From contig JADZAE010000077.1 in NCBI GenBank assembly GCA_020852715.1, positions 39,622 to 103,621 on the forward strand: a stretch of 64,000 nt of DNA, given 5' to 3'. Below, piece after piece: positions 3 through 62,570 of this stretch (positions are counted from its first letter, which is position 1; the number at the start of each line of letters is the position of its first letter). The stretch comes from Deltaproteobacteria bacterium (lineage in GTDB: Bacteria > Bdellovibrionota_C > UBA2361 > SZUA-149 > JADZAE01). Made by a program: the position numbers and the translations under genes. The notes beneath the pieces are model-generated. The model was given only the letters and a program-made list of their open reading frames with translations. It had not been told where the DNA came from and made no database searches.

Positions 3-215
3 AAATTATATGGAGCAAAAACGACACCGCATATCTTCATTATCGACACTAATGGAAACATCGCCTATATAGGCGCAGCTGATGCCGATAGCTCTCCAAC
101 GGCGAACCCAAAGGAAACAAAGAATTATATCGCCGCCGCGCTTGATGAGCAGCTAGCAGGGCAGTCTGTTTCTACCCCGGTAACAACTGCTTATGGATGC
201 TCAATAAAATATTAA
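3..215 (+). CDS. Thioredoxin-fold thiol-disulfide oxidoreductase (TlpA/ResA-like), C-terminal fragment. The N-terminus lies outside the window.
   Basis: Frame-3 translation ...KLYGAKTTPHIFIIDTNGNIAYIGAADADSSPTANPKE...IKY* resembles the C-terminal beta-strand region of TlpA/redoxin-family proteins. Stop TAA at 213-215. Confidence 0.45.
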   Translation, partial: KLYGAKTTPHIFIIDTNGNIAYIGAADADSSPTANPKETKNYIAAALDEQLAGQSVSTPVTTAYGCSIKY

Positions 216-301
216 TTCCGATAGGCGTTTTGACAATTACCTATAGATGTTATAGTTTTAGACCCCTCTTTTTAATTTTGATATGAGTAAAGGTTGTTAG
301 G

Positions 302-357
302 CTCACAGCGCCGCGCTGCATGTGCGACGCTGTGAGATAAGTAGGAAAGGTTTAAAG
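302..357 (+). promoter_or_regulatory. Conserved leader element, copy 1: hairpin (ctcacagcg / cgctgtgag), then GCTGTGAGATAAG, then AAAGGTTTAAAG, immediately upstream of the 400..822 gene.
   Basis: The same motif occurs at 5643-5692 and 17592-17613. The stems have different sequences but keep their pairing, which suggests an RNA-level element. Confidence 0.45.
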
Positions 358-385
358 CTGACTTGGTCAGCTTCAATGTTTTTTT
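355..385 (+). terminator. Intrinsic-terminator-like hairpin (aagctgac-ttg-gtcagctt + caatgTTTTTTT) between the leader motif and the RBS of the 400..822 gene. Possible attenuator.
   Basis: Perfect 8-bp stem with a 3-nt loop, followed by a T7 run. It lies upstream of the GGGGAGG RBS and the ATG at 400. Confidence 0.5.
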
Positions 386-399
386 GGGGAGGATTCACT

Positions 400-822
400 A
401 TGTCAATCGGGTATCAGTACTGTAAATGGATTGAGTTTTTATTCGGGGATTACGATCCGGCTTTAAAACTCGGTGGAGACATTAAAGTTTCCGACGAGAT
501 CGAGCTAAGCATACTCCAGGCTATCATGAAAGCAACTAGTATAGTCGGAGAGCAAGATCCAAATGTCTTAACCAATGCACTTATGACGCTGGGAGGGCAG
601 TTCAAAGTAGCTGCCGTTTGCTGGGTAATACAAAGCAGCACAGCAAGAAAAGCAAATAAAGCTGCTAATAATGCTGCAAAATGTTACGATATGGCCGTTG
701 ATTGTGCGGAGCTTGCTGAGCTTGATTGGACCATTCCTGAGCTGCAAGAGATGGAGTCCGAGGCGCATACTTTGGCACTAAAGACACTTCCAAAGCCGGC
801 ACGGGATTTTCCAATTCCTTAA
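400..822 (+). CDS. Hypothetical 140-aa protein, family A, paralog 1. Weakly similar to the 5708..6130 product.
   Basis: ORF with GGGGAGG RBS 8 nt upstream of the ATG at 400. Shared segment LTNALMTLGGQFKVAAVCWV versus IANMLSALGAKIAKLAVQLV in 5708..6130. No domain I recognise. Confidence 0.55.
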   Translation: MSIGYQYCKWIEFLFGDYDPALKLGGDIKVSDEIELSILQAIMKATSIVGEQDPNVLTNALMTLGGQFKVAAVCWVIQSSTARKANKAANNAAKCYDMAVDCAELAELDWTIPELQEMESEAHTLALKTLPKPARDFPIP

Positions 823-847
823 AAAATATTTTTTAGGAGGTTTTAAG

Positions 848-1247
848 ATGAATAATGATGAGACTAGTCCTCTCAGACTACTTGAAGTAATTCGCGAGGA
901 ACTGGCCTCGCAGAAATGTCGGAGAGGGATTCAGACAGAATTATCCTTGAAATAAAGGCTGCACTTAATGTGGCTTTTAGTCAAGTTGATTCAGATGCCC
1001 GCGAGTTGGCATTTGCCATGAGCGAGTTGGGAAAGCAGCTCAAGATCGCAGCGGAAACCTGAGCCTCTCAATATGAGACCCGGAAGAAAGCCGTTGAAAG
1101 CGCAATCTGCGCAGCACTGTGCTATGGAAAAGCCACCGTCCATCCCAAGTTAATCAGCCAAAATTGGCTTGATCAGGAAGACGAATGGCAAGGTAAAGAG
1201 TATGAAGCGATCTCTTTCGCTAATACTCTACTCCGGAGAAGATAGTC
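848..1247 (+). pseudogene. Small hypothetical gene disrupted by a frameshift near 916-930 and an in-frame TGA at 1060-1062.
   Basis: AGGAGG RBS before the ATG at 848. The reading continues in the +2 frame (MSERDSDRIILEIKAALNVAF...AAET*ASQYETRKKAVESAICAAL...RRR*) through a TGA. Confidence 0.3.
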
Positions 1248-1257
1248 TTATTTAAGC

Positions 1258-1312
1258 ATGCCCGCAAGATGTTATGGTTAAGCATAGTTACTGACCACAA
1301 CATCTTGCGGCT
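1258..1312. repeat. Long hairpin (13/14-bp stem gcccgcaagatgtt / aacatcttgcgggc, 25-nt loop) downstream of the disrupted small gene.
   Basis: Inverted repeat read directly from the sequence. No T-run follows. Confidence 0.4.
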
Positions 1313-1688
1313 GAAGGCCGGGGCATAGACGGAGTCTTATGCACGAATCCATCGGTTGCGTTACTTCAGAGTACCCGCGCTAGCACCAATGACGCCCATA
1401 ATATTGCGGCGCCTATGGAACTCGACCCATCTTTGGAAACGAAGCGGACAAAGTGGGTCGCCACCGATGCGCATTCACGCGGTGCTTGTCGGCTTCGCCA
1501 CACACCGCCGCCGATATAAACCCATCGCTGATGAATTTTGAACAAATCAAGGTTGATAGAAACTACTTGTCTCACTATTCTTATTACTGACATTACCGGG
1601 AATGCAAGAATCATCTTGCCTTGCCCTCCTGAAAACGGAAACGGATATCTATACCGAAGCTGTTAGCCGAACCGCATGCAGAAAATGT

Positions 1689-4600
1689 ATGTTCGAAAAA
1701 GTAAAACCCTGGGTTGATTTTATTGAGCTGGAGCACAAAGTGCTTCAATTCTGGGATAAAGAGCAAATCTTCCAGCAACTAATTTCAAAAAACCAAAACG
1801 GCCCACGCTGGTCTTTTCTCGATGGCCCAATCACGGCCAACAATTCAATGGGAGTGCATCACGCTTGGGGGCGCACCTTAAAAGACACTTTTCAGCGCTA
1901 CCATGCCATGGAAGGCCAATGCCTTCGCTACCAAAACGGCTTTGACTGCCAAGGACTGTGGGTGGAAGTGGAGGTAGAAAAGCAGTTAGAGTTTAAGTGC
2001 AAAAAAGACATTGAAGCATTTGGCATAGAGAAGTTTGTGAATCTTTGTAAAGAGCGAGTTCACAAATATAGCAAACAAATCACCGCGCTGTCTCGGCGGC
2101 TTGGTTACTGGATAGACTGGGATAATAGTTATTTCACCATGTCCGATGAAAATAACTATACGATCTGGAGCTTCTTAAAAAAGTGCCATGAGCGCGGCTT
2201 GATTTATCACGACTATGACGTTATGCCCTGGTGCCCACGCTGCGGTACCGGTCTATCACAACACGAAATGGGCGAAGGCTATAAAGAAATTGCTCATACC
2301 TCAGTGATCGTCAGATTCCCGCTCACCGAGTGTGGAAACGAATATCTGCTTGTCTGGACAACAACTCCGTGGACTTTATCTTCTAACGTTGCCGTTGCCG
2401 TAAATCCGGATACAATTTATCTTAAAGCCCGACAAGGCGGCGACATTTTAATACTCGCCAAGGCGCTAGCCGATAAAGTGCTAAAAGCTAAAGGTGCCTA
2501 CGAAATCCTATCTGAGCTTCCCGGTAGCGAACTACTTAATTTGAAATACGCTGGTCCCTACGACGAATTACCGGCACAGGTTAAGAACAAACTACGGCAT
2601 AAAGTAATTGCCTGGAAAGAAGTAAGCGACGCTGATGGCACAGGCTTAGTGCATATCGCTCCGGGCTGCGGCAAGAAAGACTTCGCGCTAGGAAAGAAAA
2701 ATGGTCTGCTCGCGCTTTGCTCGATCAGCGAGGAAGGCATTTACGGCGAGGGCTTCGGCTTTCTCACCGGCAAACACGCAAGTTCAGTCGCCGAAGAAGT
2801 GGTAGCGAATCTTAAGAAAAAACAAATTCTCTACTCACAAGAAAAGTTCAAACACAGCTATCCTCATTGTTGGCGCTGCGGCACTGAGCTCTTATTCCGC
2901 TTAGTTAAGGAATGGTTTATTTCCATGGATAGCTGACGCTCTGAAATCATGGAAGTAACTAAGCAAATCACCTGGATTCCAAGTTACGGCAAAGAGCTGG
3001 AGCTAGATTGGCTTAAAAACATGCATGATTGGATGATCTCCAAAAAACGCTATTGGGGATTGGCGCTACCGATCTGGATTTGTCAGGACAAAAACTGTGC
3101 TCACTTTGAAGTTATCGGCAGCAAAGAAGAGTTTAAGGAAAAGGCAATCAGCGGCTGGCAAGACTTTGATGGTCATTCACCGCATCGACCATGGATAGAT
3201 AATGTCCTCATAAAATGTCCAAAATGTGGTGGCCAGGCCAAACGTATTCCCGATGTCGGCAACCCGTGGCTTGATGCCGGTATAGTTCCTTATTCAACAA
3301 TCAAATACAACTCCGACCAAGAGTATTTTAAGCAATGGTTTCCGGCTGACTTAGTGCTTGAATGCTTTCCCTGACAATTTAAGAATTGGTTTTATAGTCT
3401 GCTCGCGATGAGTACGATGATGGAGAATAAGCCACCTTTTAAAACTTTGCTTGGACATGCCTTAGCCAGAGATGAAAAGGGTGCCGAGATGCATAAAAGC
3501 GCCGGCAATGCCATCTGGTTTGACGATGCCACAGAGAAGATGGGCGTCGACGTTATGCGCTGGTTGTATTGCGGCCAGGACGCCACAATCAATCTCAACT
3601 TGGCTTTAATATCACCAAAGAAATTAGGGGAGGGGTAGTTAATACCTATTGGAATACTTACTCGTTCTTTTGTAACGTTGCCGCCGCTGCCAATTTTATT
3701 CCTCAGCGCTCAGCAAGCGAGCCCAAGGACAGGCCGGAAATAGACAGATAGATTATCGCCAAGCTCAATGCCTACTATAAGGTTGCCGCACGTTGTTATG
3801 AGCAGTGCGACACCCACGCTGTTGACAAAGGCGCTGAAGATTTTCTGGAAAATCTTAGTAACTGGTATATTCGGCTCTGCCGCCGACGTTTTTGGGGAGA
3901 GTTATCGGTAAATTCCGACGCGCTTAGCGCTTTTCAAACACTTTATGAGTGCCTGGAGGGATTAACGCGCATTGTAGCTCCGATGCTTCCGTTTATAACT
4001 GAGAATATTTATCAAAATCTTGTTCTCGGTCATGATAAAAATGCGCCGGCCAGTATTCATCTAAGCGACTTTCCAATAGCTAAAGAGGAATTGATTAACA
4101 CCAAGTTAATCGACGAGATGGACGCTATCAGAAAACTTACCACACTGGCTTTATCAGCGCGGGAAAATGCCAAAATAAAGATCAGACAACCTTTAGCTGA
4201 GATTGTTGTCGAGACCGGGGATGTTTTAGTAAAAAAAGCAGCCGATAAATTTAAAGATTTATCACTGGAAACGCTGAACATCAAACTGATGCAGATAAAA
4301 GAGGTCGGGGCTCTCGGCTACCAATTCAAAGTCCAACCCAATTACAAAACCTTAGGACCTAAGCTTGGAGCAGGGTTAAATAAAGTAATTGCGGCGATTG
4401 CCGCTCAGCCCCCCGCAGCGCTTAAAGAACAAATAGATAAACATAAAAGTGCGGCCCTGACTGTAGAAGGACAGTCTGTTACTATAAGTGCTGAAGATAT
4501 CACCTTTAGTATATTACCCATTGCTTCATACAGCATGGCTTCTGACGCCAAATCTGTTGTCGCGGTGAACACCACAATAGATGAAGTGCTGGCTCAGGAA

Positions 4601-4861
4601 GGGTTAATGCTTGATCTGTTGCGCAAGCTCCAAGAGCTGCGCAAAGAAACTGGCCTCGATATCTCTGATCGGATAAATCTTAGCTACAGCACAGAGTCTC
4701 AAGCACTAAAGGCGATGTTTAGCGTTTGGGGGCCATACATCAAAGACGAACTGCTTTGCGAAAAGCTTGAAGTTAGTAGTGACTTAGCTAAAGAACTTGA
4801 GGTGCTTGGAGAACGATTGGCCGTGCAGATCACGAAAATCAATAATCCGCAACACCCATAA
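1689..4861 (+). pseudogene. ileS: Isoleucyl-tRNA synthetase, type 2 (eukaryote/Thermus-like), pseudogene. Three in-frame stops (TGA 2934-2936, TGA 3372-3374, TAG 3749-3751) and a frameshift near 3585-3605. Catalytic motifs are degenerate.
   Basis: N-terminus MFEKVKPW...GPITANNSMGVHHAWGRTLKD, with the HIGH motif replaced by [38 protein letters not shown] region reads EMHKSAGN. The TAG replaces the W of the conserved DRWI motif (EIDR*IIAKLN). WNTYSFF appears in a shifted frame. The C-terminal domain is in ORF 3983..4861. Confidence 0.85.
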
Positions 4862-5046
4862 TTTCACTCGCATTTACACACCGTCATGGTATCATCCGCG
4901 CGTTACTGGAAATATAAAAGCTCATAATTCCGTCAGACGTAATCATATACACAAATGCATTCGTAGGGAGGGCCTTTGGCCATCCGCCGCCTCCGCATAA
5001 TCATGGTGGCATTCGGCAAAGCCGCACGGCATGGCGATCACTCAAC

Positions 5047-5432
5047 CTGAGGGCACGCACAGCGTCTGAGTCTTATACATAAGTTGTGAAAGTGGGCTTT
5101 TAAAAGGCTCTAGCGTTAGCTTCACAAATTTTCAAATTACAATGAGGCTTTGTGGAACGCGGACCCAGTCGCTCCGCAACATGGGTCGCGTTCCACAGTA
5201 GCTACGACTTTTGTCGCGTCATGCTATTTTGTAACAACATTAGAACCTGACATTCTTGGTGGGCAGCTTGTGTATAAGACTCAGCACAGCGTGCCGCTAC
5301 GTCATCTCATTAAATAATATTATTATGAGGGGAATTAAATTCATATGTTGCAGCGTTCATATTGTTTGCCGTGACAACATACGTTGTAGCGGCACGCTGC
5401 GCGTGCCCTCAGAAAACAAAATCACAATTATG
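5047..5432. repeat. Palindromic element (arms CTGAGGGCACGC(A/G)CAGCGTGCCGCTAC at 5047-5065 + 5285-5300, and 5406-5432) whose left arm is split by the MITE insertion.
   Basis: If the MITE and one TSD copy are removed, the left arm becomes a near-perfect inverse of the right arm. A related motif GGGCACGCTGCGCGTGGCCC occurs at 52769-52790. Confidence 0.5.
5066..5284. mobile_element. Non-autonomous miniature element (~219 bp, MITE) with IS50/Tn5-like 19-bp terminal inverted repeats and an 8-bp target-site duplication CACAGCGT.
   Basis: Left end ctgagtcttatacataagt; right end (reverse complement) ctgagtcttatacacaagc. Tn5 outside end is CTGACTCTTATACACAAGT. Flanking direct repeat cacagcgt at 5058-5065 and 5285-5292. 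No ORF inside. Confidence 0.6.
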
Positions 5433-5642
5433 CAAACCCGCATGCGCCGATTCCCCTACGCCCACCACCTTCTCCCCATCATGGTGGCTCATCAACTATG
5501 TAATACAGGTAAAATACTACAAAATTATCCTCCCTAACCCCCCCAATGTTTATTCATAACAATTCTTTGACAATCCGCTATACATTTAATAGAAACTAGC
5601 TCAGTTCTTTTTCATATAGGTAAATACGATTCTAACTCTCAT

Positions 5643-5692
5643 AGCCTCGCACTTATTAGCGGGAGGCTGTGAGATAAGCCAAGGTTTTAAAG
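5643..5692 (+). promoter_or_regulatory. Conserved leader element, copy 2: hairpin agcctcgc / gcgggaggct, then GCTGTGAGATAAG, then AAGGTTTTAAAG, directly before the RBS of the 5708..6130 gene.
   Basis: A 30-nt block shared with 329-357 and 17592-17613. Followed by AAAGGAG and the ATG at 5708. Confidence 0.45.
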
Positions 5693-5707
5693 AAAGGAGA
5701 AAAAACA

Positions 5708-6130
5708 ATGGAAGCCATTGACCGGCACTTAGCACTTTCCTGGGAGAGTTTCTTTCGGGTATTTACACAGGTGAAGGGAAACTGCACACAGGTCACCTCT
5801 GATCAATTTGTAGAATTGCTGCAATCTTTTCAAAGCGTAGTAACCACATTTGAACATGGGCCCACGCAGACCCAGATAGCAAATATGCTCAGCGCACTGG
5901 GGGCAAAAATAGCAAAGCTGGCCGTACAACTTGTACACAACGAACCCCATTCATTACTTTGTTGTCGCGCAGGCATGGATTTATTTATTTGTGCCCAACA
6001 CTGCCAGCTGCAAGCTGCTCGCATTTATGGCGACCAAGGCCATCATAAGGAGCAAGACGAGGCATATTTTGCTTTGCTTGGAAGTATTGGCAGCGCGCAG
6101 GTAGCAGCTTTGAAATTGGCCCGAACTTGA
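5708..6130 (+). CDS. Hypothetical 140-aa protein, family A, paralog 2.
   Basis: ORF with AAAGGAG RBS. Weak similarity to the 400..822 product. The terminator follows. Confidence 0.55.
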   Translation: MEAIDRHLALSWESFFRVFTQVKGNCTQVTSDQFVELLQSFQSVVTTFEHGPTQTQIANMLSALGAKIAKLAVQLVHNEPHSLLCCRAGMDLFICAQHCQLQAARIYGDQGHHKEQDEAYFALLGSIGSAQVAALKLART

Positions 6131-16149: not shown

Positions 16150-16878
16150 TTAATTGACAAAGATTGCTAGCTGTACACGGAACCGAATGCTGAGAACTCC
16201 GTAGATAGAAATGACAAACGAGAAGTGAAACAATTCGCAAGAGTCGCGACAACAATTTACGGTTTGTCTTAAAAATCTGGTTACTCACCGGAATAAGTGG
16301 GTAAGAATGTAAAAACTTCCTGGAAATCGTAGAGCGTGAGTTGAGAAAACAAACGCAAGCGCCAACGGCAATTCACGGGCGACCGGCGGGTGACCGCAAA
16401 ATGCCATCGGCAATGGCACCGCATATTCTGTCGAAATGTTTAGCTGATAAAGTAGGACATGGCTTTACCCGAGACACCAAAAAATACGCCGTCATTGTAG
16501 ATTTAGCCATATTCCTATGGGCTTATCAGTCGCATGTACGAGTTTCTTCATTATGTGCGGAACTCAGGCGAAGGCAAACATCGGCAAACAACGATGCTCA
16601 GAATGTTTCTAAACACTTGGATAACCAAAATTATACGCTCCAAAATAGAGCCAATGAAGCACATGGCTCGCCAGATTAGACACCTCCAGCCACTTATTTT
16701 TAATTGGCTTACGGCCAAAAAACTATTCTCTTCCGGAATCGTTGAAGGTTTTAACAACAAAGCTAAAGTCACGCTAAAAAAAGCCTACGGATTTCACACC
16801 TTAAATGCCGTGCAAATCGCGTTATTTCAGCAACTTGGAGCTTTACCTGAACATCTGCTCACCCATACTTTCTGGTGA
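16150..16878 (+). mobile_element. ISL3-family transposase remnant (C-terminal ~240 codons, in several frames). Pseudogene.
   Basis: C-terminal ...SSGIVEGFNNKAKVTLKKAYGFHTLNAVQIALFQQLG is typical of the ISL3 transposase C-terminus. Upstream pieces are in other frames. The N-terminal half is absent. Confidence 0.6.
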
Positions 16879-32865: not shown

Positions 32866-35715
32866 CTAGGGGTTGGTGACCTGCACCAACGTGCAGCAAA
32901 AGTGGCGGTCGCTGGAGACGGGGTCGATGCGGGAAACGGGGGGGAAGTAAGTTTTGTGTTTTAGGTATGGAAGCGGATAGGCTGCTTGTTCACGGCTGTA
33001 TGGGAACGGAAATTCGTTGACAATAAGGAGGTGCGCCGGGTGCGGAGCATTTTTTAGCGGACTATCGGCCGCCTTCACTCGACCACTTTCGATATCTGCA
33101 ATTTCCCCACGAATCGCTATCATCGCTGCTACGAAGCGATCAAGCTCTTCCCTGCTTTCACTCTCCGTAGGTTCAACCATCAGTGTCTCCACTACAGGGA
33201 ATGACACCGTAGGTGCATGAAATCCATAGTCCATCAGCCTTTTTGCTACATCAGTAACGTCAACACTAACGGTTTTTTTGAAATTTCGTAAATCTAATAT
33301 ACACTCATGGGCCACTAACCCCTTTTCCCCCTTGTAAAGAACAGGAAAATATTTTTCTAAACACGCCGCTACGTAGTTCGCATTCAATATAGCTACTGCC
33401 GTAGCCTGACTCAGACCCTCTCTTCCCATCATGCGAATATAAATCCACGGGATTGTCATTATGCTTGCCGAACCCCATGGGGCAGCCGACACGGTTCCCA
33501 TCGATTTCTCTCCCCCCACCTTCACCAACGGGTGACACGGCAAATATTTTGCTAAAATTTTCTTTGCTGCTATCGGCCCTACTCCCGGGCCTCCTCCACC
33601 ATGTGGAATAGCAAATGTCTTATGTAAATTAAGATGACAAACATCCGCGCCAAAATCCCCCGGACGACAATACCCAACTTGGGCATTCATATTTGCCCCA
33701 TCTAAATACACTAAACCCCCCGCATCATGTACCATTCGGCAAACTTTTTTTATTTCTCTCTCAAACACTCCATGTGTCGACGGATAAGTGATCATTATCG
33801 CCGCCACTTCCTCTTTGTATTGCCGCAACTTTTCCCCTAAATCACTAACATCTATATTACCGTCAATATCGCATTTTACATGCACAGTTTCTAATCCAGC
33901 CAAGCTTGCACTTGCCGGATTCGTTCCATGAGCCGACGCAGGAATCAAACATAGCGTTCTTTCTCGCTCTCCTCTATCTATAAAATAACTACGAATAAGC
34001 ATCAGCCCGGCATACTCCCCTTGCGACCCGGCATTTGGCTGTAGCGACACACAGTCCATCCCCGTAATTTCGGCTAAATAATTTTCTAATTGGCTAAATA
34101 ACTCCCCGTAACCCCTTGCCTGCTTCTCTGGCACAAATGGGTGAAGCGCAGCAAATTGCGGCCAGGATAAGGCAAGCATGGAAGCACTAGAATTTAACTT
34201 CATTGTGCACGAACCTAAGGCAATCATTGAATTAGCCAGCGAAATATCCTTATCTTGGAGCTGTCTCAAATATCTAAACACCTTTGTTTCGGAGTGGTAA
34301 CTATTAAACACTTCATTTGTTAAATAAGAACTCTGCCGCTTAAATTGCACCGGCATCTCAATCGGAGTCGCCAGACCGTCCAGCACATCCTTAACTTGAA
34401 TTTTATCGTCACCAAAGCATTGAATAATTGCAACTATATCTTCAGCTGTCATTGTTTCATCAGCAGATATATAAATAGCTGCCGAGCTATAACGAAAATT
34501 AATTTTCTTGCTCTCTGCCTGTGCTTTTATTTTCGCTAGCTGTTCTCCGCTCGCAGTAATCTGTAGAGTATCAAAAACAAACGAGTTGTTTTCTTTAAAA
34601 CCCAATCCGACTAACCGTTCTTTAATAAACTGTGCGATATTATATAATCGCTCTGCTATTTTCTTTATCCCCTCCGGGCCATGATAAACAGCATACATCG
34701 CTGCCAAAATGGCCAACAAAACTTGTGCTGTGCAAATATTGCTCGTCGCCCGTTCACGACGTATATGTTGCTCTCGCGTTTGTAGCGCCAAACGAAATGC
34801 TCTCGCCCCTTGCGCATCTTGCGCCAATCCCACCATACGGCCCGGCATCTCGCGCGCCAATTCTCCGCGCACAGCCATAAATCCCGCATGCGGACCACCA
34901 AATCCCATGGGCACACCAAAACGCTGCGCGCTTCCCACAGCCATATCTGCGCCCCACTCAGCCGGCGCCTTCAACATGCTAAGCGCCAGTATGTCGCAAG
35001 CACATGTGACCAGTATATTTTTCGCAGCAGCCTTTTTGCATAGCTCGGCATAGTCATTTACCTTCCCATCGCCGTCAGGATAAGAAACAAGAAGACCAAA
35101 CACCTCCTCATCAAAATAGGTATCTGTTAAGCTTGTTTCAATAACTTCAATTCCTAACCCGAAAGCCCTTGTTTTAACTACTGCTACTGTCTGGGGAAAA
35201 TGCTGTCCAACCAGCAAAAACCGTTTTCTATTTCCCGTGGCCACCCGATAGCATAAGGCCATCGCCTCTGCCGCTGCCGTTGCTTCATCCAACAAAGAAG
35301 CATTACTAATCGGAAAACCTGTCAGATCAGAAATCATCGTTTGAAAAACAAACAACGCTTCCAATCGTCCTTGCGAAATCTCCGCCTGGTAAGGCGTATA
35401 ATGCGTATACCAAGCAGGGTTTTCCAAAATATTTCGTTGTATTACTGCCGGCAGTATAGTTCCATAATAGCCTTGCCCAATGTAACTTCTCCAAAGTTCA
35501 TTTTTATCAGCTAATTTTCTTAATTCAGTCAAGGCTTCCTGTTCGCTAAGTCTTGCCGGCAATGATATTTCTTTGGTTAGGCGAATTTCCGCGGGAACAG
35601 TCCTATCGATCAACTCCTCTAAGCTAGCTAGGCCGAGAGTTTTCAACATCTGATCAATTTCTTTTTTATCGGGTCCCAAGTGCCGAGAAGAAAAGTCCGG
35701 TAAAAAATTACCCAT
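32866..35715 (-). CDS. gcvP: Glycine dehydrogenase (decarboxylating), single-chain P-protein of the glycine cleavage system.
   Basis: 949 aa. N-terminus FSSRHLGPDKKEIDQML. PLP-dependent core. Intact. Confidence 0.95.
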   Translation of the reverse strand: MGNFLPDFSSRHLGPDKKEIDQMLKTLGLASLEELIDRTVPAEIRLTKEISLPARLSEQEALTELRKLADKNELWRSYIGQGYYGTILPAVIQRNILENPAWYTHYTPYQAEISQGRLEALFVFQTMISDLTGFPISNASLLDEATAAAEAMALCYRVATGNRKRFLLVGQHFPQTVAVVKTRAFGLGIEVIETSLTDTYFDEEVFGLLVSYPDGDGKVNDYAELCKKAAAKNILVTCACDILALSMLKAPAEWGADMAVGSAQRFGVPMGFGGPHAGFMAVRGELAREMPGRMVGLAQDAQGARAFRLALQTREQHIRRERATSNICTAQVLLAILAAMYAVYHGPEGIKKIAERLYNIAQFIKERLVGLGFKENNSFVFDTLQITASGEQLAKIKAQAESKKINFRYSSAAIYISADETMTAEDIVAIIQCFGDDKIQVKDVLDGLATPIEMPVQFKRQSSYLTNEVFNSYHSETKVFRYLRQLQDKDISLANSMIALGSCTMKLNSSASMLALSWPQFAALHPFVPEKQARGYGELFSQLENYLAEITGMDCVSLQPNAGSQGEYAGLMLIRSYFIDRGERERTLCLIPASAHGTNPASASLAGLETVHVKCDIDGNIDVSDLGEKLRQYKEEVAAIMITYPSTHGVFEREIKKVCRMVHDAGGLVYLDGANMNAQVGYCRPGDFGADVCHLNLHKTFAIPHGGGGPGVGPIAAKKILAKYLPCHPLVKVGGEKSMGTVSAAPWGSASIMTIPWIYIRMMGREGLSQATAVAILNANYVAACLEKYFPVLYKGEKGLVAHECILDLRNFKKTVSVDVTDVAKRLMDYGFHAPTVSFPVVETLMVEPTESESREELDRFVAAMIAIRGEIADIESGRVKAADSPLKNAPHPAHLLIVNEFPFPYSREQAAYPLPYLKHKTYFPPVSRIDPVSSDRHFCCTLVQVTNP

Positions 35716-39364: not shown

Positions 39365-40309
39365 TTAACGGGATCTTTTAACTAAACTTAAAACTGATGT
39401 TCGCGGATTGAAGGACTCAACAATTATGCGTCGATCATCGATACGTGCTATCTCCGGCCCATGCACCGGCTCGCCACTGCCACGCGAAATCACCGAACCA
39501 ATTCTCAACTGCATCGGCTGCATACGGTGAGCAATAATCACACGATTCACACCCTCGTCATCATAAGCCGAGGCGTGAGCAGTGCCGCGTAATGCCCCTA
39601 ATACTATGATATCACCGCCGGCAATCAAATCAGCACCCGGGTTAACATCACCGACGACTACCAAACTAAAAGGACTCTCCAACTTCTGTCCTGAGCGTAA
39701 AGTCCCATAATAAATACGGGCATTGGCATCTTCTTCGAACAATAAATCTTCGCCCAGAGACTGGGAAATCTGGTCAAAATAAGATTTTGTATTTACTTTG
39801 TTATTTATGTCTGCTTGAGCAGCGAAGCTTTTTGTAGACACTTCTGATTTCTTTGGTCGGAGGCTAAATGGCTTCAGATTTGACTCTGATCCTGAAACCA
39901 ACTGTTCGATTTGATCGGCTAAAGAATTTGCTGAAACTCTTGTCTGCACGCCTGGAGGAGGCTTGATCGCCTTTAGACGTGACTCGCGCTTTCTGCGCGG
40001 CGTGATCTCGATATCATAGCTATTTTTTAAAAGCTCTTCGAGTTCCTTACCTTGCTCCGTAGTTGGTAAACGATCAAGCCACTCAATTGAAACCTTAGCT
40101 CCACTTAAAAATGTTTTTCTCTCCGCTAGAAAAGGTTTTAACTCCGCTAAAATATTTTCCCACTCGGCACGTCCATCAATGCGCAAGACCACACCATCTT
40201 CTGTGCCGGTAGCATTAATTAAGCGCCCGTGATGTAAATCCCCACGCGCAGCTAAAGCAGAAACATCAGCGATATTTTCCGAACCATCATTATGTTGATC
40301 TTCACGCAT
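39365..40309 (-). CDS. minC: Septum site-determining protein MinC.
   Basis: 314 aa. C-terminal beta-helix region ...LVVVGDVNPGADLIAGGDIIVLGALRG... Confidence 0.88.
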   Translation of the reverse strand: MREDQHNDGSENIADVSALAARGDLHHGRLINATGTEDGVVLRIDGRAEWENILAELKPFLAERKTFLSGAKVSIEWLDRLPTTEQGKELEELLKNSYDIEITPRRKRESRLKAIKPPPGVQTRVSANSLADQIEQLVSGSESNLKPFSLRPKKSEVSTKSFAAQADINNKVNTKSYFDQISQSLGEDLLFEEDANARIYYGTLRSGQKLESPFSLVVVGDVNPGADLIAGGDIIVLGALRGTAHASAYDDEGVNRVIIAHRMQPMQLRIGSVISRGSGEPVHGPEIARIDDRRIIVESFNPRTSVLSLVKRSR

Positions 40310-53212: not shown

Positions 53213-54806
53213 CTAATACTTAAACTGTTGCAGTAATTCCTGCAAAGCCGCAGCTCTTTGCGCTAGGTCTGTAGCAACTTGCTGGGTAAGAGTTGCTACG
53301 CTGGCCGCTTGCTGCGAGGTCACAGATACTTCTTTGATACCTGTAGCAATCTCGCTACTGCTGATCGCTACTTCGGCAGCGTTACCGGAAATCTCTCGAG
53401 TGGTGACACTTTGCTCCTCGACAGCACTGGCAATCGTCGTTGAGACATCATTGATCTGCTCAACAATGGCAGTTACTTCGTTTAACGAGTCAATAGCCTC
53501 ATTGGTCCCAGCCTGTATGTCCCGCACACGTCTAGTAATTTCCTCAGTTGAATGCGATGTCTGTTTAGCCAATTCTTTTACTTCGTTAGCAACAACAGCA
53601 AAGCCTTTCCCCGCCTCTCCAGCACGGGCGGCCTCAATGGTAGCATTTAAAGCTAACAAGTTGGTCTGCTCAGCAATGGCGCTAATAAGGTTCACGACAT
53701 TCCCAATTTCCTTGCTACTAGCATCCAGCCTAGCAATCTTATCATTAGTTAATTTTACTGCGTGTAAAGATCTTTGTGCAATTTCTCGCGCACCAGCAGT
53801 ATTATTAGAGATCTCCCTAACCGCCTCTGCCATCTGCTCAGAAGCAGAAGCTACAGTATTAATGTTGGTATTTACTTGCCCGGCAGCAGAAGCAATTATT
53901 TGGGTTTGTGAGAAAGCGTTAAGAGCACTGCTATATACATACTTTGCCCTTCTGATTTCAATTGAGTCGCAGCATCTGCCAAGGCCACAACATTTTGCCC
54001 AATCTGTGATACGGCAGACTGAATCCGAGCAACAAAAGCATTAAACCAATCAGCAACTTGTCTTAATTCATTTTTACTCTGCACATTTAGTCGCCTAGTT
54101 AAATCTCCTTCTCCCTGGGCAATATCACGCAAAGCGGTAATAACAGTAGCCAGCGGTCGGGTAATGCTGTTACTTAAAAATATACCAAGTATAAAAACAA
54201 TACATATGCCCACTAGAATTAATCCCCAGCTTAATTTCCGCATGAGGTTAGCATCTACTTCCGCAGCTTCCACCCGTTCTCGAGCCTTGGTATTATGAAA
54301 CTGGACAATTTGTTCAAAAGCAGCAAAAAGTTTATTGGAAGCGTTTTTAAACTCATTACTTAATTGGGCATTAAAGTGCGTAGTGCTGTCGATATCTTTT
54401 TTACGGGAGATAATCATCTCCTCACCAGTTTTATCCCAGGCAGCAAATGCTTCTTTCACTTCATTATATAAAGCTTCCTCTCCTTCCAAAAAAGGTGTGG
54501 CCAAAAATTCATCACGGTAACGGTTATAATCTGCACGTAAGGACAAATATTTATCGTGAATTTTTCAACCAACTCCTCAGTATTTGACTCTAAGCTGGCG
54601 CGAATAACAAAAGCTCGCATATCCTTAGCCTGCCCATCCATTTTACTAAGCTCAACAGTGGCCGGAAAATTTTTTCACGCCATCTTGTGAAAGTTATCCT
54701 ACAGCTGGTTTAGCGCGTAAGAACTGGCAAACCCTAAGATGATCAATAAGATCGTGGACACTACCGGGCCCAGCAAAACACGCGATCGAAACGAAGTCAG
54801 CGCCAT
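53213..54806 (-). pseudogene. Methyl-accepting chemotaxis protein (4HB sensor, TM, HAMP, MCP signalling domain). Disrupted by two in-frame stops near the N-terminus and at least two frameshifts.
   Basis: C-terminal ...[27 protein letters not shown]... (53213..53833). HAMP/sensor portion in ORF 53896..54546. N-terminus MALTSFRSRVLLG...NQL*DNFHKMA*KNF... Confidence 0.8.
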
Positions 54807-61912: not shown

Positions 61913-62073
61913 AGTTATGTTTCCCCCAGACTATTTATATGAGTCCTTTATCAATCGCTTCTTTTTCCCTAAGTAAAGTAGTATCCGTTCACGACTTTTA
62001 GTGAGTTTCTATATAAAAGCCCCCTGAGGGGGCAAGTTTTGCGAAGCAAAACTGTTGGGGGGCAGACACTAAG

Positions 62074-62570
62074 CCTTCACAAGATTAGTCGTCTCCGATG
62101 AGGAAACGTCAATAAATTTAAAAATATTCACGTTTCTAATACCCCTGAAATTTTAATGAAAATTATCCCGTGAAGACTTATGTAAAGTAAGCCCGGCAAT
62201 AATTTTGCTATTGGTATCAGAAAGTTACAGGCGCGCTAACAAAAATCTACGATCTGTTTGCCAGCCATACAACCCTATCAGTTCCAACCAAGCCTTCTAG
62301 CACAGAGTCGGCAATTTGATACAACCAACCCGCTGCGGCTATTTATATCGCCACACGAAGTAAGTTGAAACAAAGACTTTGAACAGTATATTACTAAGTA
62401 ATTAAGTTTTGCGTGCGGTATAAAGAAAAGCAAGGATGCCTTTCGCGGAAGCGAAACCCCGATTCGCTTCCGTAAACGCCCATAAATAAGCCACGGATGG
62501 CCTATTTATGGGCAAAATGAAACTAAACCTTCACATATTTAATCGTTTCCGATGAGGAAACGTCAGATTA
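62074..62570. repeat. Two copies of a ~42-bp direct repeat (CCTTCACA(A/T)...TCGT(C/T)TCCGATGAGGAAACGTCA) about 455 bp apart, in a 0.95-kb ORF-free region rich in perfect hairpins.
   Basis: 62074-62115 and 62528-62570. Nearby hairpins: gcccataaata / tatttatgggc (11-bp stem), ttttgc-gaa-gcaaaa, gcccccTGAgggggc. Confidence 0.45.

Follow-up and report, generated by a model that had tools for sequence, protein, structure and literature searches.

Two genes encoding orphan proteins of exactly 140 amino acids (aa) each, P1 (400..822, + strand) and P2 (5708..6130, + strand), share an upstream promoter/leader module of about 155 nucleotides (nt) in a 64,000-nt stretch of DNA from a Deltaproteobacteria bacterium (positions 39,622 to 103,621 of contig JADZAE010000077.1, metagenome-assembled genome GCA_020852715.1; hereafter, the window). 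A third gene behind P1, here called P3 (848..1245, +), is a disrupted tandem paralogue of P1 with about 131 aa when repaired. In our view the best explanation is a lineage-restricted, fast-evolving family of soluble all-alpha paralogues, arranged in two units and co-regulated by the duplicated module, a reading on which our judgement is evenly poised. An earlier inspection of the window by a model that was given the letters and a list of open reading frames (ORFs), from here on the sequence-only reading, had proposed the two ORFs of about 140 aa at these coordinates, and this was borne out.

P1 (IT292_10665) and P2 (IT292_10675) are each annotated by NCBI as a "hypothetical protein", with the consecutive protein accessions MCC6933695.1 and MCC6933696.1. 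Both start codons are preceded at a distance of 7-8 nt by a strong Shine-Dalgarno (SD) sequence, GGGGAGG at 386-392 for P1 and AGGAG at 5695-5699 for P2. As claimed by the sequence-only reading, neither protein has a signal peptide, a transmembrane (TM) segment or a recognised domain. The hydropathy scan found no TM segment in either protein, the top 19-residue Kyte-Doolittle means being 1.26 for P1 and 1.29 for P2. Profile searches with both proteins had been suggested as a check, and no known family reached significance; searches of Pfam, NCBIfam, PHROGs, PADLOC and PDB sequences with P1 and P2 returned nothing significant. The nearest Pfam match was DUF1048 (E = 0.15, 12.9 bits against a cut-off of 29.6) and the nearest PHROG match was a PHROG of unknown function (E = 0.035), both under threshold.

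The promoter/leader module

The module occurs upstream of both P1 and P2 and in exactly two copies in the window, copy 1 at 205..360 (+) and copy 2 at 5545..5692 (+). A covariance model built from the two aligned copies scored them at 114.7 and 105.7 bits, respectively, and detected no third copy in the window with filters off; no further regulon sites or family members were found within the 64 kb. The two upstream regions align with a column identity of 75%, over a span that reaches from about 25 nt before the hexamer TTGACA down to AGGTTT(T)AAAG just 5′ of the ribosome-binding site. In copy 1, an A/T-rich stretch is followed by TTGACA (230-235), a palindrome, the block TTTTgATATgaGTAAA, a hairpin, ATAAG and AGGTTTAAAG (348-357). 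Copy 2 contains TTGACA at 5567-5572, the palindrome-like sequence CTATAcatttAATAG at 5578-5592, ATAAG at 5674-5678 and AGGTTTTAAAG at 5682-5692. Common to both modules are the conserved block TTTTnATATnnGTAAA and, immediately 5′ of the ribosome-binding site, a conserved single-stranded AUAAG...AGGUUU(U)AAAG; in each copy, TTGACAAT and CTGTGAGATAAG are exactly 100 nt apart. The pattern TTGACAAT-N3-CTATAnATnTnATAG has two occurrences in the 64 kb against 0 expected, and the same holds for GTGAGATAAG-N(2-8)-AGGTTT. The claim that the same upstream element was kept before both genes is thus confirmed by the 75% identity and by patterns that are unique to the two sites.

The −35 hexamer TTGACA is perfect in both copies, and the palindrome sits where the −10 would be expected under the sigma-70 criterion that was applied (−35 and −10 hexamers 16-18 nt apart). 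In copy 1 this is the perfect palindrome CTATAgatgtTATAG (241..255, +), which lies downstream of the −35-like hexamer and before the likely −10. The palindrome pattern CTATA-N5-TATAG matches the window only at the two module copies, with 0.38 matches expected by chance, and is a candidate operator site that a regulator may bind.

Further downstream, a stem-loop of 13-15 base pairs without a following U-run lies in the 5′ untranslated region (5′-UTR) of both copies. It is formed by CTCACAGCG...CGCTGTGAG in copy 1 (302..336, +), with a folding free energy (dG) of −25.7 kcal/mol and z = −4.6 versus shuffles, and by CTCATAGCCTCGC...GCGGGAGGCTGTGAG in copy 2 (5638..5673, +; dG −25.0 kcal/mol, z = −5.1). 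The stem base CTCAYAGC/GCTGTGAG is conserved between the copies; the apex is wholly different in sequence with its pairing kept, and includes one G-C to C-G compensatory pair. Such blocky conservation, together with a hairpin structure that was kept despite its rebuilt apex, argues for long-term selection and not for a recent copy. The statement of the sequence-only reading that no recent duplication is involved is therefore reasonable in view of the roughly 75% module identity, its blocky pattern and the structure-preserving change of the hairpin, as well as the 31% identity of the coding DNA against a background of 26%. Its claim of common regulation has good support in the clear homology of the modules and in their unchanged geometry. 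As judged from these comparisons, the module seems to be constrained far more strongly than the coding sequences.

Stem-loops in the 5′-UTR stabilise bacterial mRNAs, for example in the leader of ompA. The module resembles an ompA-type leader in its very stable untranslated-leader hairpin upstream of the SD, with no U-run after it; there is no sequence relationship, and the nearness of the hairpin to the 5′ end is here only presumed. Copy 1 alone possesses an additional terminator-like hairpin with a T-run (355..384, +), which is a 27-nt insertion relative to copy 2 and may function as an attenuator before P1. The succession of a hairpin, a terminator-like hairpin and a T-run before the SD in copy 1 is reminiscent of attenuation leaders, among which PyrR (RF00515) is the nearest in architecture, while copy 2 differs from these in that it lacks a terminator. 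A search for an alternative antiterminator pairing found none.

Searches of Rfam with the leader yielded no family at gathering or permissive thresholds. The PyrR binding site was rejected as a candidate at 18.4 bits versus a gathering cut-off of 54, the resemblance being one of generic architecture alone, and so was freshwater-2 (22.4 bits versus a cut-off of 49.9), for which the match rests only on the SD-region stretch AAAGGAGAAAA...AUG. A CsrA-site pair, an integron attC site and a ZAS-type zinc motif were compared by eye, and the motifs were missing or not present in both copies. The leader segment AGGTTTAAAGC (348-358) is complementary at 10 of 11 positions to GCTTTAAAACT within the P1 coding region (460-470).

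These features bring up the alternative that the non-coding element is itself the functional unit, as a small RNA or as a ligand- or protein-sensing leader such as a riboswitch or attenuator, and that the ORFs are secondary. A free RNA of about 120 nt would then come from the promoter, hairpin and terminator-like hairpin of copy 1. The non-coding DNA is indeed better conserved than the coding DNA (75% versus 31%), the hairpins are very stable, with whole-leader folds at z = −3.3, and the terminator-like hairpin of copy 1 with its T-run precedes the SD. However, no Rfam family matches, copy 2 lacks the terminator and leads directly to a strong SD and an ATG, the element consists of one simple hairpin and has no multi-stem ligand pocket, and both ORFs look coding. 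Hence, we consider this alternative improbable.

If instead a co-regulated paralogue family is assumed, the two units would be module 1-P1-P3 and module 2-P2-terminator. A single DNA-binding regulator acting at the palindrome would switch both units together, the 5′-UTR hairpin would stabilise the mRNA or bind a regulatory factor, and the extra terminator-like hairpin before P1 would add attenuation. P2 would be a very distant third member of the family, of equal length, in the same register at residues 57-76 and with the same helix/loop layout. A more far-reaching proposal, to which we give a low probability, is that the module of about 155 nt might represent an undescribed cis-regulatory element that combines an operator with a protein- or ligand-responsive hairpin and defines a regulon of orphan helical-bundle proteins in an uncultured lineage that branches deeply and is poorly sampled. 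The single-stranded AUAAG...AGGUUUAAAG beside the stem might then be the recognition site.

Relationship of P3 and P2 to P1

P3 had been missed by the sequence-only reading, is unannotated by NCBI and is newly identified here as a pseudogene. It starts 25 nt downstream of the P1 stop codon and has its own SD, AGGAGG (835-840). The first frame is open for 35 codons from position 848, a frameshift is located between about 890 and 925, and the protein resumes in another frame to position 1245. At 1060-1062 there is an in-frame TGA exactly opposite Trp75 of P1 in the alignment, consistent with a change of TGG to TGA. In BLASTP, repaired P3 and P1 matched with E = 9e-10 and 39% identity over 80 aa. 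When the window was translated in six frames and searched with P3 by phmmer, P1 was retrieved at 2e-8 and no further member came up. At the sequence level, P1 and P3 are thereby shown to be true paralogues, and they are the only statistically secure pair. According to the covariance model P3 carries no leader copy; the implication of the sequence-only reading that each member has the leader is wrong for this third member.

P1 and P3 constitute one transcription unit behind module copy 1, and P2 a separate unit behind module copy 2. The latter ends in an intrinsic-terminator-like hairpin directly after P2 (6136..6169, +; GGTGGAGATT / AATCTCCACC followed by TTTT), with which weak hairpin-type Rfam matches overlap. 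Just past P3 there is a near-perfect hairpin of 17 base pairs without a T-run (1262..1310), possibly the end of the P1-P3 unit or a site of processing.

For the comparison of P1 with P2, offset 0 is the natural prior register because both proteins have 140 aa. In this ungapped alignment 20 of the 140 positions are identical. Its BLOSUM62 score (z = 3.2) was reached in 26 of 20000 shuffles (p about 1e-3) and equalled by only 1 of 139 cyclic shifts. When P3 was placed in the register of P1, its score against P2 was z = 3.8, reached in 3 of 20000 shuffles and with 0 of 139 cyclic shifts as good, a result that is not independent of the P1-P2 comparison and points in the same direction. The in-register coding DNA of P1 and P2 is 31.4% identical versus 25.9% for codon shifts, and the excess is confined to codon positions 1 and 2. 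The same register was picked by hhalign (36-76 vs 35-76), in an alignment that is not significant. Eight residues are identical in all three proteins (S31, D32, L64, G65, A72, C95, Q116 and A122). The segment on which the sequence-only reading had based its family corresponds to residues 57-76 in P1 and in P2 and follows the pattern ...L-G-x-x-x-K/x-x-A-V....

Structure prediction, also suggested as a check, gave a divided answer. The predicted secondary structures of P1 and P2 agree at 113 of 140 positions, and 14 of the 18 loop residues of P2 fall on loops of P1, with 4 of 139 shifts equally good. Predicted helices and loops coincide, but the model of P1 is poor and the hydropathy profiles are uncorrelated.

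Several results weigh against a common family and its joint control. The ordinary alignment of P1 and P2, which the sequence-only reading itself had named as the point on which its family claim would fall, was run and is not significant. BLASTP returned E = 2.6, and in another register, whereas hhalign of a P1+P3 profile with P2 gave E = 0.2 at a probability of 0.3%; the similarity of P3 to P2 is likewise not significant by BLASTP or hhalign. Judged by that alignment, the family claim fails. Gapped local and global P1-P2 scores lie at the shuffle mean (z about 0). The in-register signal stems almost entirely from one segment of 20 residues and scores elsewhere are at random level, and the p-values are partly post hoc because the earlier reader had picked the pair by that very segment. 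The AlphaFold2 (AF2) model of P1 is poor (pLDDT 50), which makes the secondary-structure comparison soft, and the hydropathy profiles of P1 and P2 are uncorrelated in register (r = 0.05). On the side of the module, the possible −10 hexamers (TAGTTT / TAGAAA) are weak, and the consensus promoter scan called the predicted promoters at neither site; with two copies only, there is almost no covariation to support the hairpin structure. Moreover, no homologues were found, hence there are none with which conservation, regulation or function could be tested.

Some of these points are what would be expected if only the promoter/leader had been duplicated, or had recombined, before an unrelated gene. 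P2 would in that case not be homologous to P1 and P3, and the resemblance over 20 residues as well as the equal length would be coincidences between helical proteins. Such a capture of the module agrees with the lack of significant P1-P2 and P3-P2 alignments, the uncorrelated hydropathy, the random-level scores outside residues 57-76 and the sharp end of the upstream similarity just 5′ of the SD. It does not account as easily for two proteins of exactly 140 aa, for offset 0 being the best or joint-best of 140 registers at both the protein and DNA level, for P3 scoring best against P2 in this same register, or for the coincidence of the predicted loops. In addition, the module is 25% diverged and its hairpin apex was rebuilt, so the copy is not recent. 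We therefore regard capture by an unrelated gene as rather unlikely. The family claim is kept alive by the equal length, the in-register identity excess, the coinciding helix/loop layout and the homologous flank, evidence that is weaker than an ordinary alignment, and P2 is probably a true distant paralogue of P1 and P3. The claim is thus corrected to a secure pair, P1 and P3, with P2 as only a probable member. The ileS gene between the P1-P3 unit and P2 appears dead from its lesions (see below).

A comparable situation is known from the erp genes of Borrelia burgdorferi (OspE/F-related, with the 'upstream homology box'), in which greatly diverged paralogues share a conserved promoter, operator and leader and are co-expressed (PMC10016077). 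The likeness, a conserved upstream module before strongly diverged coding regions, is one of analogy and not of homology. The erp genes encode lipoproteins of the cell surface that have a conserved signal peptide, whereas P1 and P2 are cytoplasmic; the erp genes exist in many copies on cp32 prophage plasmids, whereas here two module copies are visible and there is no mobile-element context. Proteins that bind the erp operator are known (BpaB, BpuR and EbfC), in contrast to the system described here, for which no regulator is known. Unlike in erp, the conserved part here includes a 5′-UTR hairpin.

If the co-regulated family is real, it provides a small case of a regulatory module that is constrained much more strongly than the proteins whose expression it drives, and adds a further orphan family of helical bundles, from a lineage without sequenced relatives. 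As an orphan paralogue family preceded by a conserved module, the finding is of an ordinary kind; it opens no long-standing question, and all of it rests on two copies in one metagenome-assembled genome.

Coding character, distribution and fold

Codon usage was scored as log-likelihood per codon after training on 24 long ORFs of the window. The scores were 0.220 for P1 and 0.135 for P2, compared to 0.245 +/- 0.06 for known genes in the window, and all wrong frames of P1 and P2 scored below −0.18. The value for P2 falls under the 5th percentile of the known window genes. Both P1 and P2 look like real genes, P2 being the less typical of the two.

Word-seeded searches of 5.8 billion protein clusters with P1 and P2, and an exhaustive phmmer search of 1.84 billion cluster representatives with the concatenated P1+P2, returned self matches only. 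For comparison, the best non-self match of the glycine dehydrogenase GcvP encoded in the window (32866..35715, −) among the 5.8 billion clusters had 58% identity, and its matches were spread over cyanobacteria, Planctomycetota, Nitrospira and Myxococcota. The lineage is therefore one without a close sequenced relative. The absence of homologues says little, since small fast-evolving proteins would be undetectable in more distant relatives.

The leader pattern gave 12 chance matches, mostly inside coding sequences, in 185,579 GTDB species-representative genomes. As there was no self match, the source genome lies outside that set. The combined leader pattern had 0 matches in the JGI metagenomes. 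Two matches there to the hairpin pattern were rejected as chance matches to unrelated tandem hairpin repeats; the contigs concerned (L013, 500..800, and L014, 8120..8420, −) contain the same tandem array of hairpins, with TCACAGCTC...GAGCTGTGAG recurring at intervals of ~60 nt, upstream of a GC-rich gene that encodes a membrane protein. Searches of IMG/VR, PLSDB and phage records with the leader found nothing relevant. Across all sequence sets that were searched, the number of module copies is two.

The AF2 single-sequence model of P2 (pLDDT 76, pTM 0.73) has helices at 2-25, 31-49, 54-78, 83-109 and 113-139. That of P1 has helices at 3-15, 32-48, 54-105 and 113-129, with boundaries near those of P2 (32-48, 54-, 113-). 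P2 is predicted to be an up-down five-helix bundle, which indicates a fold class and nothing beyond it. A Foldseek search with the P2 model found no PDB or viral structure under E = 0.027; near P2 are generic up-down helical bundles in the PDB, such as formiminotetrahydrofolate cyclodeaminase (1o5h), single-chain Rop, designed helical repeats and JukB (9jht). No catalytic or metal-binding motif is common to P1, P2 and P3, and the cysteines and histidines of P2 are not kept in P1 or P3, except for C95. The lack of a catalytic motif and the generic helical-bundle fold lead us to guess that the proteins are more likely of a binding, adaptor or immunity type than enzymes. The data suggest no function, ligand or partner for P1 or P2.

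A protein without relatives among about 15 billion might also be no functional protein at all. P1, P2 or both could be ORFs that arose by chance or were left over as this stretch of a pseudogene-rich genome decayed, next to the pseudogenes P3 and ileS and in a window in which other genes are disrupted too; the low codon score of P2 would fit this. We judge it very unlikely. Each of the two genes has a correctly spaced strong SD and a conserved promoter/leader, and in the reading frame the codon scores greatly exceed those of all five other frames. P1 and P3 show conservation of their protein sequences, and P2 folds confidently from its single sequence. Orphan status is, moreover, what one expects in a lineage without a close database relative, as illustrated by GcvP at 58%.

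Disrupted genes and repeats in the window

Between P1-P3 and P2 lies an IleRS2-type ileS pseudogene (1602..4861, +; best PDB matches 1ile and 8c8u). Two in-frame TGA codons, at 2934 and 3372, interrupt it, the reading frame shifts near 3600, and at 3749 a TAG takes the place of the conserved Trp of the DRW motif. These lesions mark this ileS copy as dead, as far as the sequence can tell, and NCBI also treats it as a pseudogene, as can be seen from the consecutive accessions of P1 and P2. Of the four nonsense codons found in ileS and P3, at least two (P3 1060 and ileS 3749) stand in place of a Trp codon TGG and so are G-to-A changes; the one at 2934 is unassignable. Recoding of TGA was rejected as an explanation, given that other ORFs are long under table 11 and that one of the ileS stops is a TAG at a conserved Trp. 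Because P3 is dead, the family is in birth-and-death turnover, in a stretch that also holds the dead ileS copy.

Elsewhere in the window, the gene for a methyl-accepting chemotaxis protein is broken in two (53213..53833 and 53896..54546, −), and its HAMP and MCP-signal parts lie in different frames. An ISL3 transposase remnant (16534..16878, +) comprises only the C-terminal ~75 residues, and there are several ORF-poor gaps of 1-2 kb. The split receptor, the ISL3 remnant and these gaps suggest a pseudogene-rich genome or an error-prone assembly.

The ~700 nt directly upstream of module copy 2 (4862..5566) contain no convincing ORF. Strong inverted repeats are present in this region at 5151-5172/5176-5197 and at 5284-5300/5386-5402 (17 nt, 94% complementary, 85 nt apart), and the region may either encode a structured RNA or consist of decayed sequence. 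Another repeated non-coding element is a 47-nt direct repeat (62065-62111 / 62519-62565; 85% identity, 454 nt apart), which is located in a ~950-nt stretch without ORFs of at least 60 aa.

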